DNA from: a virus
Taxonomy: Duplodnaviria; Heunggongvirae; Uroviricota; Caudoviricetes
Reading direction: 5' to 3' (one strand)
Virus record (IMG/VR): IMGVR_UViG_2703719355_000010
DNA length: 9,215 bases
Part shown: piece after piece, positions 3,597-8,919 of the stretch
Layout: every line of letters begins with the position of its first letter
Numbering within the stretch: position 1 is the first letter of the stretch
The notes under the pieces: generated by a model
What the model saw: the letters and a program-made list of their open reading frames with translations, nothing else
Database searches by the model: none
Told to the model about the DNA's origin: nothing
Program-made: the position numbers and the translations under genes

Positions 3597-3714
3597 TGCT
3601 GCGGGTGCTTGAGGCTATCTGCCTCGGGCATGCCACCGTAAGGCAGACAGAGAAAAGCCCCAGTTAACATTACGCGTCCGGCAAGACGCTTAACATTAAT
3701 CTGAGGCCATATCT

Positions 3715-3927
3715 ATGACTTGCACATGTAGGTTAGCCTCTTACGTGCCGAAAGGCAAGGAGAAGCAGGCTATGAAGCAGCAAAAGGCGATGTTAATCGC
3801 CCTGATCGTCATCTGTTTAACCGTCATAGTGACGGCACTGGTAACGAGGAAAGACCTCTGCGAGGTACGAATCCGAACCGGTCAGACGGAGGTCGCTGTC
3901 TTCGTAGACTACGAATCTGAGAAGTAA
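3715..3927 (+). CDS. mok: Mok-like reading frame: in-frame N-terminal extension of hok (70 aa)
   Basis: ATG at 3715 in frame with hok, mirroring the mokC/hokC arrangement I recall, where the mok frame governs hok translation. Confidence 0.55.
   Translation: MTCTCRLASYVPKGKEKQAMKQQKAMLIALIVICLTVIVTALVTRKDLCEVRIRTGQTEVAVFVDYESEK
3772..3927 (+). CDS. hok: Hok/Gef-family type I toxin, 51 aa
   Basis: Product MKQQKAMLIALIVICLTVIVTALVTRKDLCEVRIRTGQTEVAVFVDYESEK is near-identical in pattern to HokC/Gef as I recall it (MKQHKAMIVALIVICITAVVAALVTRKDLCEVHIRTGQTEVAVF...). RBS AAGGAG is 9 nt upstream. The predicted mRNA 5' end (3601-3614) pairs with the 3' end (3977-3991), the fold-back arrangement typical of hok mRNAs. 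Confidence 0.85.
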   Translation: MKQQKAMLIALIVICLTVIVTALVTRKDLCEVRIRTGQTEVAVFVDYESEK

Positions 3928-5086: not shown

Positions 5087-5376
5087 TGGTGGATTTACGT
5101 AAAGCGGCGCGGGGGCAGATGTGCACCGTCAGAATTCCTGGCTACTGCAATCACGATCCGGAAACGTCTGTGCTGGCGCATTACCGACTGGCGGGAACGT
5201 GCGGAACAGCGATAAAGCCACACGATATGCAGGCAGCGATTGCCTGTAGCTCGTGCCATGATTTAATCGACGGGCGGGTAAAAACCGGCGATTACACCAA
5301 AGAAGAATTACGCCTGATGCATGCAGAAGGTGTTTTTCGCACACAAGAAATCTGGAGAAAGGAGGGATATTTATGA
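5086..5376 (+). CDS. YbcO-like protein, 96 aa (DUF1364, putative metal-binding nuclease)
   Basis: Product MVDLRKAARGQMCTVRIPGYCNHDPETSVLAHYRL...IACSSCHDLIDGR closely follows the pattern of DLP12 YbcO as I recall it (LRKAARG...C.VRIPG.CN..PETSVLAH.RL...IACS.CHD.ID), including the conserved Cys/His positions. Overlapping start and stop with both neighbours. Confidence 0.75.
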   Translation: MVDLRKAARGQMCTVRIPGYCNHDPETSVLAHYRLAGTCGTAIKPHDMQAAIACSSCHDLIDGRVKTGDYTKEELRLMHAEGVFRTQEIWRKEGYL

Positions 5377-5927
5377 TTTACCCAACGAATACAGGAAAAA
5401 GCGGAGAACACCTTCGTCTCACCACGCTGGAAAGTGTCTGGATTCAGGGAAAACTACGTATGTGGGGGCGCTGGTCGTATATTGGCGGCGGTAAGACGGG
5501 AAATATGTTTAACCAGTTGCTGACCTCTAAAAAGCTAACAAAAACGGCAATTAATGAGGCGCTCCGGAGGATGAAAAAAGCAGGTCTGGACAAACCTGAA
5601 CTTGAGGCTTTTTTGCGGGATATGATCAACGGCAAGCAAAAAAGCTGGCTGGTGCATTGTACTGATGCAGAGGCGTTATGCATTGATCGGGTGATTAGTG
5701 AAGTGCTGGCAGAACACCCAGGATTGATTTGTATCCTCCGGCAAAGATATGAAGGGCGGGGGATGAGTAAGCGCAAAATGGCTGAATTGCTAAATGATGC
5801 ACACCCTGAGTGGTGTTTTCGGACGTGCTGCAGTCGGGTAGATGTATGGCTAAATCTTGCTGAATATATGCTCTATCTGCCGATGCGTGATGCATTCTCT
5901 TCCGGGTATTTAAAAACTGTCTGTTGA
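5373..5927 (+). CDS. Putative late-gene antiterminator Q (non-lambda Q family), 184 aa
   Basis: ATG at 5373 with GGAGGG 6 nt upstream. Sits in the Q position: downstream of nin-type genes and immediately upstream of a strong promoter plus short-transcript terminator. An N-terminal W-G-x-W motif resembles what I recall of Q82/QuuD-type proteins. Family not verified. Confidence 0.55.
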   Translation: MIYPTNTGKSGEHLRLTTLESVWIQGKLRMWGRWSYIGGGKTGNMFNQLLTSKKLTKTAINEALRRMKKAGLDKPELEAFLRDMINGKQKSWLVHCTDAEALCIDRVISEVLAEHPGLICILRQRYEGRGMSKRKMAELLNDAHPEWCFRTCCSRVDVWLNLAEYMLYLPMRDAFSSGYLKTVC

Positions 5928-5953
5928 CTCAATCTGTTATCCGGGGCTATATT
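5924..5953 (+). promoter_or_regulatory. Candidate late promoter (PR'-like): -35 TTGACT at 5924-5929, 18-nt spacer, -10 TATATT at 5948-5953
   Basis: Near-consensus sigma-70 hexamers overlapping the Q stop codon, followed by a hairpin at 5961-5978 (CGCCAG-CAAAAT-CTGGCG) in the initially transcribed region, as expected around a Q-utilisation/pause site. Confidence 0.5.
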
Positions 5954-6015
5954 CCTCACGCGCCAGCAAAATCTGGCGTCGGGATTAGGAACCCCGGATA
6001 GAGACCGCGACAGAC

Positions 6016-6040
6016 ACACGCCGCGAGCGTGTTTTTTATT
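6016..6040 (+). terminator. tR'-like intrinsic terminator downstream of the late promoter
   Basis: Hairpin ACACGC-CGCGA-GCGTGT followed by TTTTTATT, about 60-80 nt downstream of the predicted start site, analogous to the lambda PR'-tR' short transcript. Confidence 0.55.
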
Positions 6041-6200
6041 GTCGTATGCACGCGCACATCTGAATTATGGTGGGGCGTATGGGGGAGCTGAAAAGCTCGC
6101 CGGTTGGTTTCCCGGTAGTTCCTAACCCTGTACGTCTCACCACCCGATGATTAGGAACCTGACGGTGGTGATGGTTTAGAAACCACCAGAGGGCGTCATT

Positions 6201-6782
6201 ATGACAACTCAAATTTCTGTTGAAACTCTCTCCCCGATCACCCATAACCAGATTCCTGTTATTACCACCGAACTTTTGGCGCAGTTGTACGGTGCTGGAG
6301 TTAAGAACATTCAAAATAACTACGCCAGAAATGCTGAGCGCTTTATTGAAGGAAAGCATTTTTTCAAAGTGGCTGGCGATGCCCTGAAAAATTTGCGGGT
6401 AGCTTTAAACTACTCACAAAATTTGCAACTATCTTTAAGAGGGTTACAAATTTCCCCGAAAGCCCGCTCCCTCATCCTCTGGACAGAACGCGGAGCAGCC
6501 CGTCATGCCAAAATGCTGGAAACCGATCAGGCGTGGGATGTGTTCGAAAAGCTGGAAGACTGCTATTTCAGACAAAAGGATCCGTCAGCGCCAGTTTCAT
6601 GCCAGAAAAGTTACGACACGCGAGTTCTCTGTTATCAGAGAGGCGGTGTCACTGTTTCCACAATTCAGTTACGGGATGATGATATTGTTATTTCCCTTGA
6701 GTCATGGCTGGAACTGGCGAGAGCCAATGGTTGGTTTGTTGTTCGCAGAGATAAACTGGTGGAAAGGTTGATGCAGCTTTAA
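6201..6782 (+). CDS. ORF6N-domain protein (KilA-N-related, antirepressor-like DNA-binding domain), 193 aa
   Basis: N-terminal LLAQLYGAGVKNIQNNYARNAERFIEGKHFFKV matches the ORF6N signature I recall (LAELYG...N.AVKRN.ERFPEDFMF). ATG at 6201 with a GAGGG RBS. Confidence 0.65.
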   Translation: MTTQISVETLSPITHNQIPVITTELLAQLYGAGVKNIQNNYARNAERFIEGKHFFKVAGDALKNLRVALNYSQNLQLSLRGLQISPKARSLILWTERGAARHAKMLETDQAWDVFEKLEDCYFRQKDPSAPVSCQKSYDTRVLCYQRGGVTVSTIQLRDDDIVISLESWLELARANGWFVVRRDKLVERLMQL

Positions 6783-6879
6783 AAAAGTTCTTGCATTTTT
6801 GCACATAAACTGCTTCAATTCCTGTATGCTTCGCAAAGCTGTATCGCGAGGCGAAACGCAAGTTTTTTTCGCACAAGGA

Positions 6880-6902
6880 AGCCACCGGAAGGTGGTTTTT
6901 TT
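6880..6902 (+). terminator. Intrinsic terminator after the ORF6N gene
   Basis: Hairpin CCACC-GGAA-GGTGG followed by seven T residues. Confidence 0.65.
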
Positions 6903-7025
6903 GTGTCCGTAATATACAGCAGCGCAATAAATTCGCTGGTGGTTATTAATACCGTTCTTTCAGCTTGCTGGCTTTTTCGACAAGAGTTATTGGTATGTCA
7001 CGTTAACCGGAAAGGGTAAAAAGAC

Positions 7026-8101: not shown

Positions 8102-8177
8102 GGCCCTTTAGCTCAGTGGTGAGAGCGAGCGACTCATAATCGCCAGGTCGCTGGTTCAAATCCAGCAAGGGCCACCA
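8102..8177 (+). tRNA. tRNA with anticodon CAU; sequence pattern of tRNA-Ile2 (lysidine type, ileX-like) rather than tRNA-Met
   Basis: Cloverleaf folded by hand: acceptor GGCCCTT/AAGGGCC, D-stem GCTC/GAGC, anticodon loop CTCATAA, T-loop TTCAAAT, encoded CCA. Close to my recollection of E. coli ileX. Confidence 0.8.
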
Positions 8178-8178
8178 A

Positions 8179-8255
8179 CCGCCACTAGCTCATCAGGAAA
8201 GAGCGTCAACCCTTTAAGTTGAGTGTGCGAGGTTCGAGTCCCCGGTGGCGGTCCA
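8179..8255 (+). tRNA. Atypical tRNA or tRNA-like gene; anticodon loop CCTTTAA (nominal anticodon UUU, Lys) with C instead of U at position 33 and an unusual D-loop
   Basis: 7-bp acceptor stem CCGCCAC/GTGGCGG, T-loop TTCGAGT, encoded CCA, 5-bp anticodon stem TCAAC/GTTGA. Deviations: 5' C, D-loop ATCAGGAAA, C33, one A-C mismatch in the T-stem. May be a degenerate or specialised tRNA. Confidence 0.5.
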
Positions 8256-8257
8256 GT

Positions 8258-8333
<76 letters not shown>

Positions 8334-8336
8334 TAT

Positions 8337-8411
<75 letters not shown>

Positions 8412-8703: not shown

Positions 8704-8919
8704 ATGAAATCCATGGACAAAATTTCAACGGGCATTGCCTACGGCACCTCCGCAGGCAGTGCTGGCTACTGGTTTTTACAGTGGCTTGATCAAGTCAGTC
8801 CGTCACAGTGGGCTGCGATTGGTGTACTGGGGAGTCTGATTCTGGGCTTCCTGACTTATCTGACAAATCTGTACTTCAAAATCAGAGAAGACAAGCGTAA
8901 GGCTGCACGGGGAGAGTAA
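8704..8919 (+). CDS. S: Class II holin / pinholin of the phage 21 S type (S21-like), 71 aa, with dual-start motif
   Basis: Product [71 protein letters not shown] matches my recollection of S21 almost residue for residue, including the Met1/Met4 dual start (MKSM). GGAGG RBS 7 nt upstream. Confidence 0.85.

Follow-up and report, generated by a model that had tools for sequence, protein, structure and literature searches.

The C4 RNA of the plasmid prophages P1 and P7 is cut from a transcript by RNase P and acts in trans, and its b' sequence occludes a ribosome-binding site (PMC5320573). In the case of Gifsy-1, the isrK promoter drives isrK-orf45-anrP, and IsrK in trans lifts the translation of anrP more than 100-fold (PMC4825925). 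The pairs G28:C162 and G31:C159 have been demonstrated there by compensatory mutation; IsrK with the a1 mutation G28A or G31A has no activity in trans, and the structure is restored by compensatory changes in a' (PMC4825925). A stable processed RNA, STnc1160, was reported as well, and the authors of that study attribute activation to a 45-codon upstream ORF that is coupled to anrP (PMC4825925). Hfq binding by IsrK and its activation of an antirepressor in trans are known only in Salmonella (PMC4825925). In P4, the output is described as premature transcription termination of the replication operon (cited in PMC4825925), and not control of an antirepressor.

Here we describe the region preceding an ORF6N-domain gene in a stretch of 9,215 nucleotides from a Caudoviricetes virus (IMG/VR record IMGVR_UViG_2703719355_000010; hereafter the window). 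We consider it very probable that positions 5924-6203 form a complete C4/IsrK-type antisense-RNA control module placed before a prophage antirepressor gene, which assigns a function to the unannotated 270 bp between the DUF1133 and ORF6N genes. The system as such is already known (P1/P7 C4, P4 CI, Gifsy-1 IsrK), and the repeats in the window are for the most part explained as its matching sites.

Results

Repeats in the leader of the ORF6N gene

The module comprises the following features:

5924-5953, + strand: module promoter; TTGACT, 18-nt spacer, TATATT; 10 of 12 consensus matches
5960-6037, + strand: IsrK-like short RNA (Rfam isrK, RF01394); three hairpins, the terminator being the last
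5983-5993, + strand: a1, upstream copy of the C4 target; core TTAGGAAC at 5985-5992, in the 9-nt loop of a hairpin (5980-5996)
6001-6007, + strand: b1, upstream copy of the second target; GAGACCG, forming 5 Watson-Crick and 2 G-U pairs with b'
6016-6037, + strand: intrinsic terminator of the short RNA, previously termed tR'-like; 6-bp stem with 4 G-C pairs, then TTTTTTATTGT
6069-6144, + strand: C4-type antisense RNA (Rfam C4, RF01695); ends placed after those of P1 c4 (48343-48419)
6105-6111, + strand: b', recognition sequence within the hairpin 2 loop of C4; TGGTTTC
6118-6125, + strand: a', recognition sequence within the single-stranded C4 linker; GTTCCTAA, 5' arm of the first pair reported earlier
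6137-6144, + strand: C4 3' end; TCACCACC, combining the final 5 bp of the closing stem with the ACC tail, 5' arm of the second pair reported earlier
6149-6159, + strand: a2 target site; core TTAGGAAC at 6151-6158, starting 6 nt past the predicted C4 3' end
6164-6171, + strand: c2; GGTGGTGA, between a2 and b2 and complementary to the C4 3' end, 3' arm of the second pair reported earlier
6172-6185, + strand: small leader hairpin; TGGTT-TAGA-AACCA, with b2 in its 3' arm, part of conformer A predicted for 5960-6200
6179-6185, + strand: b2, target of b'; GAAACCA, ending 3 nt before the Shine-Dalgarno sequence
6189-6203, + strand: Shine-Dalgarno sequence (GAGGG, 6189-6193) and start codon (ATG, 6201-6203)
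6201-6782, + strand: ORF6N-domain gene, 193 aa, AnrP homologue (Pfam ORF6N, E = 4e-19)

A preliminary description of 5983-6185 had listed two 8-nt complementary pairs, a repeated 11-mer and a small hairpin, all of which were recovered from the sequence. Both pairs, GTTCCTAA (6118-6125) with TTAGGAAC (6151-6158) and TCACCACC (6137-6144) with GGTGGTGA (6164-6171), are 100% complementary in the sequence and in a repeat search, and these likewise place the 11-mer GATTAGGAACC at 5983-5993 and 6149-6159. The hairpin at 6172-6185 has TGGTT/AACCA arms and a TAGA loop, and an intrinsic terminator (6016-6032 plus a T run) does lie between the two 11-mer copies. The listed repeats exceed chance expectation: among 20,000 dinucleotide-preserving shuffles of 5940-6200, 15.5% contained one or more 8-bp inverted pairs separated by no more than 60 nt, 0.17% contained interleaved 8-bp inverted pairs, and 0.42% an 11-mer direct repeat. 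The repeat search also returned a pair that had been missed, TGGTTTC (6105-6111) with GAAACCA (6179-6185), of which the latter constitutes the 3' arm of the small hairpin. In addition, the upstream 11-mer is complementary to 6118-6128 (11 nt, 91%), and an incomplete third copy of the 11-mer, GTTTAGAAACC, is located at 6174-6184.

Three known RNA families match the leader

The Rfam search that had been proposed returned three known RNA families, each above its gathering score; they follow one another in the order expected and share one strand. Gifsy-1, P1 and P4 are matched by these same models. The isrK model (RF01394) matches 5960-6037 with 69.4 bits (gathering score 50), and this match is bounded by a promoter and an intrinsic terminator, the latter (6016-6037) fitting the terminator hairpin of the model. 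The promoter at 5924-5953 is the sole promoter-like site that a promoter scan found in 5300-7000, and its sequence is conserved in Gifsy-1; judging from position 1 of the isrK model, transcription would start near 5960. The predicted fold of the IsrK-like RNA has an energy of -23.8 kcal/mol. The c4-a1b1 model (RF03163) matches 5947-6000 marginally (47.8 bits, gathering score 46.7), and upstream copies of both targets are present. The IsrK-like RNA corresponds to the a1/b1 leader of P1 and to the seqA region of P4. Site a1 equals a2 over 11 nt, and the energy of the b1:b' duplex is -8.6 kcal/mol; sister variants have GAAACCG at the b1 position. According to a hand alignment of the window with Gifsy-1, the equivalents of G28:C162 and G31:C159 are 5987:6123 and 5990:6120, which are A:U pairs here.

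The C4 model (RF01695) is fully matched (model positions 1-87) at 6063-6147, with 67.0 bits (E = 1.1e-11, gathering score 45). The RNA consists of a 16-bp closing stem (6069-6084/6126-6141), hairpin 1 (6085-6098), hairpin 2 (6099-6116), a single-stranded linker and an ACC tail; folded alone it reaches -42.4 kcal/mol and takes a tRNA-like shape that leaves a' and b' unpaired. The G at 6069 and the ACC at 6142-6144 fit the processing context of P1 and, by analogy with that system, C4 may be excised here by RNase P to a length of about 77 nt and repress in trans. A tRNA or degenerate tRNA in 6060-6190 was considered and rejected, as ARAGORN places tRNAs only at 8102-8411. A separate C4 promoter between the terminator and 6063, for which a weak TTGTCG, 18 nt, AATTAT arrangement (about 8/12) can be seen by eye, was also rejected, because its start would lie inside the C4 stem and the promoter scan reports none.

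The ORF6N protein is 53% identical to the antirepressor-like protein AnrP of Gifsy-1 (STM2616; E = 5e-67), and its start at ATG 6201 is confirmed by N-terminal residues that are identical to those of AnrP from that ATG onward. An orf45-like ORF with in-frame AUGs at 6067 and 6079, 12 nt apart as in Gifsy-1, comprises 27 codons; its stop codon (6148-6150) lies 51 nt short of ATG 6201, and the AUGA stop/start overlap with the antirepressor gene that marks IsrK-type coupling is absent here. Across the family this ORF ranges from 8 to at least 45 codons, and the overlap is confined to the Gifsy-1 class. The upstream neighbour encodes a DUF1133 protein with a weak Phage_antitermQ match, which is unrelated to the Q protein of Gifsy-1.

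Comparison with P1/P7, Gifsy-1 and P4

The GenBank record of P1 immI lists a1, b1, c4, a2, b2 and icd, elements whose order matches that in the window and whose spacing is similar, and P1 scores 68.8 bits with the C4 model and 51.0 bits with the a1b1 model. The RNAs of P1/P7 (Rfam RF01695, RF03163) and of the window share an identical 5' end, AATTATGGTGGGGCGT, and fold alike: both have a long closing stem and two hairpins, the second of which carries b' in its loop, while a' is part of the linker and the RNA ends in an ACC tail. In both, a2 is found just past the 3' end of the RNA (the P1 a2 is annotated at the equivalent relative position), a complement of the C4 3' end lies between a2 and b2, b2 is at the ribosome-binding site of the next gene, and an antirepressor gene is located downstream. 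The a' of P1, CTGTCAA, is homologous in position to that of the window, and P1 b', TCACTAAC, is homologous and occupies the same loop. The targets themselves differ, being TTAGGAAC and GAAACCA in the window but TTGACAG and GTTAGTGA in P1. Furthermore, the window has no icd and its regulated gene is of the ORF6N/AnrP type rather than P1 Ant; the a2-b2 spacer is 20 nt long (22 nt in P1), and 3 nt lie between b2 and the Shine-Dalgarno sequence, whereas in P1 b2 overlaps that sequence and is located 11 nt ahead of the icd start codon. The settings also differ, since the window represents a lambdoid prophage in which the module follows a Q-like gene, whereas P1/P7 are plasmid prophages under C1 control.

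The isrK-orf45-anrP region of Gifsy-1 (RF01394; Hershko-Shalev et al. 2016, PMC4825925) shares with the window the promoter, the IsrK architecture and the terminator, and scores 69.0 bits with the C4 model and 79.3 bits with the isrK model. Its C4-like region is the same, and the C4 match is located at STnc1160. Both TCACCACC and GGTGGTGA are identical in the two loci, the downstream proteins are homologous (53% identity, same N-terminus), and both modules directly follow an antiterminator-type gene. They differ in their a and b specificities, which in Gifsy-1 are TTGGCGT and ATCACCG, and in the upstream ORF, which overlaps the anrP start in Gifsy-1 (45 codons) and ends before a2 in the window (27 codons). 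In P4, the CI region scores 74.9 bits with the C4 model and the seqA region 60.8 bits with the isrK model; seqA and CI are separated by a spacer that exceeds its counterpart in the window by about 110 nt, and the sequence of the closing stem is different. The scores of the window are on a level with those of these type loci.

Recognition sequences covary with their targets

Covariation in related prophages had been named beforehand as the decisive test, and the paired segments proved to be both conserved and covarying. To this end, 82 unique related leaders were retrieved by the common 16-mer AATTATGGTGGGGCGT. Among them are 16 different a' cores and 25 different b' loops, which covary with the targets. 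These occur in 38 combinations, and each pair of a and b sequences may be regarded as an immunity "address". Pairing in the closing stem of C4 reaches 100% in 42 aligned variants, and in hairpin 1 each of the 5 pairs has undergone double-sided (compensatory) changes. The covariation score was 0.336 versus 0.155 in shuffles, none of 500 shuffles scoring as high, and for a1:a' plus b1:b' it was 0.420 versus 0.152 in these same 42 variants. Because the loops vary from 8 to 13 nt and the MAFFT alignment of b' and b2 is imperfect, the value of about 70% paired for the b'/b2 helices is an underestimate, and an alignment-free test was therefore used, which compared cognate with non-cognate combinations among the 82 leaders. 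At least 7 Watson-Crick pairs were present for a':a2 in 100% of cognate and 5.7% of non-cognate combinations, for a':a1 in 98.8% and 5.7%, and for b':b2 in 91.5% and 1.4%; for b1:b', at least 7 pairs including G-U were found in 90% and 10.7%, respectively.

The two pairs listed in the preliminary description differ in kind: the first is the a'/a2 recognition pair, and the second joins the C4 3' end to c2 and is not b'/b2. The second recognition pair, unrecognised at that time, is the pairing of b' with b2 at the ribosome-binding site. In the window a':a2 comprises 8 bp and b':b2 only 7 bp (-9.2 kcal/mol), which is weaker than in most relatives, where b2 overlaps the Shine-Dalgarno sequence. 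In all variants b2 is adjacent to or overlaps this sequence; that of the window adjoins GAGGG without overlap, a position in keeping with the C4 family, although slightly weaker than that in P1. The suggestion that the element acts as RNA, most likely controlling expression of the ORF6N gene, is supported by this conserved, covarying pairing.

A conserved pairing between the C4 3' end and c2

Across the 42 variants the 3'-end:c2 helix is 92.3% paired and includes 3 pairs in which both sides have changed, whereas controls in which the partner was slid by 1-3 columns were 31-64% paired. Compensated forms are CCUGCCACC/GGUAGCAGG in P1, GCUGCCACC/GGUGGUAGC in a Klebsiella phage, GCUAUCGCC/GGCGAUAGC in P4, where the CI 3' end and a segment following seqC are perfectly complementary over 9 bp, and a fourth form, GCUACCACC/GGUGGUAGC. 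It should be noted that the c2 covariation stems mostly from a few deep splits (the P1 group, the P4 groups and Klebsiella), amounting to about 4-6 independent events. The c2 pairing is unannotated in the P1 record and lies outside the published Gifsy-1 model; it is the sole part of the module that is possibly new, and older P1 or P4 literature may already describe a complement of the 3' end.

Two other roles for c2 were considered and rejected. Its use as the Shine-Dalgarno sequence of a mini-ORF (ATG 6171, GTT, TAG) is at odds with relatives, most of which lack the ATG, and with P1, whose c2 is unlike a Shine-Dalgarno sequence. Pairing of c2 with ACCACC (6182-6187) as its conserved partner appears in the fold of the leader alone, but this partner is not kept in other classes.

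Two predicted conformers of the unprocessed transcript

Folding predicts two competing, near-isoenergetic conformers, namely the C4 fold and one that combines a1:a' with the 3'-end:c2 hairpin. For the unprocessed transcript 5960-6180 the second is favoured (-92.0 versus -84.9 kcal/mol), and for 5960-6230 the C4 fold is favoured by 1.9 kcal/mol, gaps of 2-7 kcal/mol being within the error of a minimum-free-energy model that ignores co-transcriptional folding, pseudoknots and proteins (Hfq, RNase P). Of 65 relatives, 61 have this non-C4 conformer as their predicted minimum, as does the unprocessed leader of P4; the 3'-end:c2 hairpin is part of the predicted minimum-energy structure in 61/65 unprocessed leaders. 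In this ground state 3'-end:c2 forms alongside a1:a' and not alongside a':a2. The competitors of TCACCACC are the 5' strand of the closing stem (6069-6084) and GGTGGTGA, and it does not compete with a'/a2.

In an RNA comprising C4 and the leader, imposing a':a2 in cis costs 13.7 kcal/mol (-46.6 versus -60.3 kcal/mol; ViennaRNA cannot score pseudoknots). With an intact C4 stem this pairing would produce a knot in which a connecting loop of 9 nt spans 16 bp, which we judge sterically unlikely. RNAcofold gave no intermolecular pairs between C4 and the leader, loop-loop contacts being outside its model. The proposal of a conformational switch holds in so far as folding yields mutually exclusive pairings, but the exclusive states are not the two pairs originally listed; and rather than the H-type pseudoknot of both pairs, the predicted switch opposes a1:a' plus 3'-end:c2 to the C4 fold.

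Discussion

Taking all functional steps over from P1/P7 and Gifsy-1, we propose that the constitutive-looking promoter at 5924-5953 would yield mostly a terminated IsrK-like RNA of 78 nt (5960-6037), in which a hairpin loop presents a1 and a single-stranded spacer presents b1. Read-through transcripts would add the tRNA-like C4 (about 6069-6144), the leader with a2, c2 and b2, and the ORF6N/AnrP gene, and RNase P, by analogy with P1/P7, would release C4 from them. The a' of the released C4 (6118-6125) could then pair with a2 (6151-6158) and its b' (6105-6111) with b2 (6179-6185); as the b':b2 duplex would lie 16-22 nt before the ATG, inside the ribosome footprint, translation of the antirepressor would be blocked. 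Sites a1 and b1 may counter this by mimicking a2 and b2. The abundant short RNA would capture a' and b' in trans and counteract C4, and in cis, a1 and b1 would capture a' and b' of their own read-through transcript, preventing the closing stem from forming; the freed 3' strand of C4 (6137-6144) could then pair with c2 (6164-6171) in a hairpin that marks the non-C4 conformer. We infer that C4 represses ORF6N here, that IsrK titrates or refolds C4, and that c2 takes part in the switch.

For c2 a more far-reaching proposal can be made, which we advance tentatively and think somewhat more likely to fail than to hold. It states that 3'-end:c2 is a conserved, covarying fourth interaction of the whole C4/CI/IsrK family and joins a1:a' and b1:b' in a second global fold that the read-through transcript can adopt. 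This fold would contain no C4, because the stem that is the substrate of RNase P is dismantled and the ACC tail masked. The module would then be a bistable RNA device in which each transcript either yields the repressor RNA or keeps it locked, the balance being shifted by the short IsrK RNA, and in relatives with a U run after c2 the hairpin might also serve as a conditional terminator. Together with the predicted two-state fold, c2 could reconcile the "repressor" picture drawn for P1 with the "activator" picture drawn for Gifsy-1. Two observations in Gifsy-1 fit poorly with a simple scheme in which C4 represses and IsrK titrates: a1 mutations in cis raise basal expression, and constitutive STnc1160 failed to relieve IsrK toxicity (PMC4825925).

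The module might alternatively work by activation only, as described for Gifsy-1. The C4 region would then be an orf45-like ORF in an mRNA locked by a1:a', IsrK in trans would open the ribosome-binding site of this ORF, and the ribosomes translating it would switch on the antirepressor gene, with no repression by C4. In sequence, the window is the nearest relative of the isrK locus of Gifsy-1: IsrK and the promoter are the same, and an AnrP homologue is present; both AUGs of orf45 (6067 and 6079) are retained, the 180-nt transcript adopts the same "structure A" in the window and in Gifsy-1, and mutational data in Salmonella back the mechanism (PMC4825925). We nevertheless consider this explanation rather unlikely for the window, as its ORF of 27 codons lacks the AUGA overlap needed for coupling, ORF length is variable in the family with the overlap restricted to the Gifsy-1 class, and the Gifsy-1 authors themselves report conservation of the nucleotide sequence and not of the peptide (PMC4825925). 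Moreover, it leaves no role for a2 and b2, which covary with a' and b' in every variant, including Gifsy-1.

Far less probable is the original interpretation, according to which the two 8-bp pairs act in cis, as an H-type pseudoknot or as mutually exclusive hairpins, and alone control read-through or translation. Both pairs are real, conserved and covarying, their order is interleaved, and the 3'-end:c2 hairpin, with a2 in its loop, belongs to the predicted ground state of the unprocessed transcript. That same ground state, however, pairs a' with a1 instead of a2, the energetic cost of a':a2 in cis is the 13.7 kcal/mol given above, and positions 6137-6141 are part of a 16-bp stem conserved as pairs to 100%, in an RNA that is excised and trans-acting in P1/P7. 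Besides, neither pair touches the ribosome-binding site, and b'/b2, which does, has no place in that interpretation. The preliminary description had also suggested that the 11-mers are binding sites for a protein. That the 11-mers and inverted repeats are DNA sites bound by a regulator of the phage, for instance a repressor or a Q-like protein, might be suspected from the identity of two 11-mers 166 bp apart near a promoter, and from the Q-like gene directly upstream, but we find this scarcely credible: among relatives the 11-mer is replaced by at least 15 unrelated sequences, each tracked by its reverse complement inside the structured C4 RNA, the b1:b' pairing is kept through G-U wobble, which is meaningful only in RNA, and the module also occurs in nin regions without a nearby Q gene.

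The C4/IsrK-type control module that we prefer brings together P1 c4, P4 CI with seqA and seqC, and Salmonella IsrK with STnc1160, which are three literatures on one device. The choice of a prophage between silence and induction depends on control of the antirepressor, and the same module is present in many Stx phages of Shiga-toxin-producing E. coli. Matches to it were found in 248 phage records and in 784 of 5,426 complete E. coli genomes.

Repeats and RNA families in the ORF6N leader

The preliminary description had noted interleaved 8-bp inverted repeats, a repeated 11-mer and a small hairpin before the ORF6N gene, and reading of the sequence together with a repeat search located every one of them at the coordinates given there. 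Chance can be excluded as their source: when 5940-6200 was shuffled 20,000 times with its dinucleotides preserved, perfect 8-bp inverted repeats interleaved as a pair appeared in 0.17% of the shuffles, and a direct repeat of 11 nt in 0.42%. The search also returned two complementarities that had not been listed: TGGTTTC at 6105-6111 with GAAACCA at 6179-6185, and the upstream 11-mer with 6118-6128 (11-nt complement, 91%). When the window was scanned permissively against Rfam, three families on the plus strand, in order, exceeded their curated thresholds. By aligning P1, the Salmonella prophage Gifsy-1 and the window, the repeats could be assigned to the elements of the C4 antisense RNA system, of which a1, b1, c4, a2, b2 and icd are annotated in the P1 GenBank record. 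Here, a' and b' are the recognition segments of C4, a2 and b2 their downstream targets, and a1 and b1 upstream copies of these targets in the IsrK-like short RNA.

Features of the leader
5947-6000, plus strand: Rfam c4-a1b1, 47.8 bits (gathering score 46.7)
5960-6037, plus strand: Rfam isrK, 69.4 bits (gathering score 50)
5983-5993: a1, upstream copy of the 11-mer direct repeat GATTAGGAACC
6001-6007: b1, GAGACCG, pairing with b' through five Watson-Crick and two G-U pairs
6016-6032: intrinsic terminator followed by a T run, between both 11-mers
6063-6147, plus strand: Rfam C4 antisense RNA, 67.0 bits (gathering score 45)
6105-6111: b', TGGTTTC, in the loop of C4 hairpin 2
6118-6125: a', GTTCCTAA, in a single-stranded linker of C4; first inverted pair, with TTAGGAAC at 6151-6158
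6137-6144: TCACCACC, 3' end of C4; second inverted pair, with c2
6149-6159: a2, downstream copy of the 11-mer, its core starting 6 nt past the predicted C4 3' end
6164-6171: c2, GGTGGTGA, between a2 and b2
6172-6185: small hairpin, carrying b2 in its 3' arm
6179-6185: b2, GAAACCA, 3 nt 5' of the Shine-Dalgarno sequence GAGGG and 16-22 nt 5' of the ATG at 6201

As positive controls, the c4 of P1 scored 68.8 bits and its a1b1 region 51.0; the isrK-to-anrP stretch of Gifsy-1, in which the stable processed RNA STnc1160 has been reported downstream of IsrK (PMC4825925), matched the C4 model with 69.0 bits; and in P4 the CI region matched C4 (74.9 bits) and the seqA region the isrK model (60.8 bits). 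By these matches, the differently named systems of P1, Gifsy-1 and P4 are one family, of which the window carries a full copy. The element belongs to known, curated RNA families whose nearest relative has already been dissected experimentally, and the preliminary description had rediscovered the hallmark repeats of the system from raw sequence.

Two further repeats were seen. A third copy of the 11-mer, GTTTAGAAACC at 6174-6184 (82% identical), overlaps b2 and the small leader hairpin; pairing of a' with this copy would be possible with a single mismatch. The other is an inverted repeat of 9 bp without mismatches, TATCCGGGG / CCCCGGATA, which has one arm in the promoter spacer (5938-5946) and the other on the 3' side of the a1 hairpin (5992-6000); if the inferred start site is right, it cannot act as RNA, because the first arm lies upstream of that site.

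Covariation among related leaders

The 16-mer AATTATGGTGGGGCGT at the 5' end of C4, common to P1, Gifsy-1 and the window, was used to scan viral contigs, and 82 unique leaders were recovered, with 16 a' cores, 25 b' loops and 38 combinations of the two. In an alignment-free test, the a' or b' of each RNA was matched against the sequences on either side of that RNA, and against those around RNAs with a different specificity.

Percentage of leaders reaching 7 or more contiguous pairs
a':a2 (Watson-Crick): cognate 100%, non-cognate 5.7%
a':a1 (Watson-Crick): cognate 98.8%, non-cognate 5.7%
b':b2 (Watson-Crick): cognate 91.5%, non-cognate 1.4%
b':b1 (counting G-U): cognate 90%, non-cognate 10.7%

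Across all variants, b2 either borders on the following gene's Shine-Dalgarno sequence or overlaps with it. An alignment of 42 sequences gave a whole-structure covariation score of 0.336, against 0.155 when shuffled (none of 500 shuffles scored as high), and a score of 0.420 against 0.152 for a1:a' plus b1:b'; the closing stem of C4 is paired in 100%, and hairpin 1 shows compensatory changes at all five of its pairs. Together with the cognate test, these counts answer positively whether the paired segments are conserved and covary in relatives, the check on which the preliminary description had made its proposal depend. Two pairs of Gifsy-1, G28:C162 and G31:C159, have been proven by compensatory mutation (PMC4825925); by hand alignment they correspond to 5987:6123 and 5990:6120 in the window, both of which are A:U, a natural compensation at these very positions.

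The a and b specificities are reassorted among the leaders of loci L018-L137 (the a site TTGGCGT, for example, is combined with 8 or more distinct b loops), which suggests a modular exchange of immunity determinants between prophages.

The C4 3' end and c2

TCACCACC is not b'; it comprises the final 5 bp of the closing stem of C4, which is 16 bp long, and the ACC tail that follows. Its pairing with c2 is nearly invariant in lambdoid-type leaders, so that conservation alone would prove little; in deeper branches, the two sides change in step.

C4 3' end and c2 by group
Window: UCACCACC, c2 GGUGGUGA
P1 group: CCUGCCACC, c2 GGUAGCAGG (one mismatch)
Klebsiella phage: GCUGCCACC, c2 GGUGGUAGC
P4-type, form 1: GCUACCACC, c2 GGUGGUAGC
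P4-type, form 2: GCUAUCGCC, c2 GGCGAUAGC

In the variant leader L104, a G-C pair is restored where its sisters have G-U. Over the 42 sequences, pairing in the helix reaches 92.3%, and at three of its pairs both sides have changed; when the partner was shifted by 1-3 columns as a control, pairing was 31-64%. c2 is absent from the annotated features of the P1 GenBank record, and its position lies beyond the 180 nt modelled for Gifsy-1 (PMC4825925). The covarying pairing and the two-state fold that it implies are the only part that may be new, unless, as may be the case, they were described in the original P1 or P4 papers.

In many relatives, a U-rich run directly follows the hairpin of the C4 3' end and c2, e.g. 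AAGUUUUUC, GUUUUUU or GUUAUUUGCUAUU (L014 1130-1420, L011, L023, L025, and P4, L138 8300-8720, minus strand); the run is weak in the window (UGGUUUAG) and missing in Gifsy-1. Where present, this arrangement looks like a conditional intrinsic terminator.

Folding, mechanism and alternatives

Alone, C4 (6069-6144) is predicted to fold with -42.4 kcal/mol, leaving a' and b' unpaired. For 5960-6180 and 5960-6200, the predicted minimum combines a1:a' with the hairpin of the C4 3' end and c2, a2 lying in its loop, and the b1 region pairs long-range with hairpin 2. For 5960-6180, this non-C4 structure reaches -92.0 kcal/mol versus -84.9 with the C4 stem forced; for 5960-6230, the C4 fold is favoured by 1.9 kcal/mol. 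Of 65 unique relatives, 61 have the non-C4 conformer as their predicted minimum (median advantage 5.2 kcal/mol), and so do P4, the Klebsiella phage and two variants from Stx phages; in P1, the C4 fold is preferred by 1.1 kcal/mol. Hershko-Shalev et al. separated a 'structure A' and a 'structure B' of the Gifsy-1 RNA on native gels (PMC4825925), and the two conformers predicted for the window match them. As the predictions are thermodynamic and leave out co-transcriptional kinetics, two-conformer folding is a lead rather than proof, as is the natural role that it would give c2, that of the partner taking up the freed 3' strand of C4.

In the best-supported mechanism, the promoter at 5924-5953 would mostly yield a terminated IsrK-like RNA, and read-through transcripts would contain C4 and the antirepressor mRNA. 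Once folded and excised, C4 would use a' and b' to pair with a2 and b2, blocking the ribosome site, following the P1/P7 paradigm (summarised in PMC5320573). a1 and b1 would then be mimics capturing a' and b', either in trans, by the short RNA, or in cis, in a conformer locked by the pairing of the C4 3' end with c2. In P1 (L017), b1 and c4 are separated by a hairpin and T run (CCGCAGATTTCCGATATTGCGG then TATTTTTG, 48290-48325) whose position in the alignment is that of the IsrK terminator, and therefore P1 might also make a short a1/b1 RNA.

Of the explanations offered in the preliminary description, that of a translation-controlling RNA element, possibly a conformational switch, is partly right, while the pseudoknot and the DNA sites found no support. 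A pseudoknot formed by the two listed inverted pairs purely in cis is disfavoured: in RNA containing C4 plus leader, forcing the C4 3' end onto c2 costs only 2.3 kcal/mol, but forcing a':a2 costs 13.7 kcal/mol, and the predicted minimum pairs a' with a1 instead. Protein-binding sites on the DNA are excluded, since the repeats covary with their reverse complements, G-U pairs are tolerated, and the module is also found away from any Q gene.

In Gifsy-1, IsrK supplied in trans turns the antirepressor on, for which a1:a' pairing is required (PMC4825925). Two Gifsy-1 results are at odds with a scheme in which a repressor is simply titrated: basal expression rises when a1 is mutated in cis, and IsrK toxicity is not rescued by additional STnc1160 (PMC4825925). 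The authors proposed activation via a 45-codon upstream ORF coupled to anrP (PMC4825925). That model gives no role to a2 and b2, yet these covary with a' and b' everywhere, and the upstream ORF is not conserved: its length varies across the family between 8 codons and 45 or more; it has 27 codons in the window (stop at 6148-6150), and shows the AUGA overlap only in the Gifsy-1 class. We therefore weight C4-type repression as the conserved core, and treat upstream-ORF coupling as a class-specific addition that the window is without. The AUG of this variable ORF (6067-6150 in the window) lies within the 5' strand of C4, as also in L013, L022-L025 and others, and the frame is open and in phase with the downstream start codon in 39 of 81 related leaders.

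Gene neighbourhood and distribution

The regulated gene (6201-6782) encodes an ORF6N-domain protein that shares 53% identity with Gifsy-1 AnrP, the N-terminus being the same in both. Upstream, 5373-5927 encodes a DUF1133 protein that matches Phage_antitermQ weakly (27.5 bits, cutoff 26) and proved unrelated to the Gifsy-1 Q protein on comparison; downstream lie genes for an AraC-type regulator, four tRNAs and a P21-type holin. By these neighbours, the late region begins with the module, and in Gifsy-1 it does likewise. Many Stx phages have the module, with its own promoter, in the nin region, before an 'antirepressor' gene. The unit of promoter, IsrK, C4 and antirepressor occupies two genome positions: directly 3' of a Q-type gene at the late-region head (window, L016; Gifsy-1) or, in many Stx phages, within the nin region and 3' of ninB or ninE (L002-L010).

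Prophages of E. coli O145:H28 and others are identical in sequence to the window, and a match was found in 784 of 5,426 complete E. coli genomes. At 3603-3777 (plus strand; ORF 3715-3927) lies a hok/sok-type toxin-antitoxin locus (Rfam sok, 110.6 bits, gathering score 59), where an identical prophage carries an annotated Hok/Gef family protein. The four tandem tRNA genes (8102-8411, plus strand; Met-CAT, Lys-TTT, Thr-TGT and Gly-TCC) lie just upstream of the holin gene (8704-8919); an O145 prophage otherwise identical over 5900-6260 has Ile, Arg and Arg tRNA genes and two IS3 copies instead.
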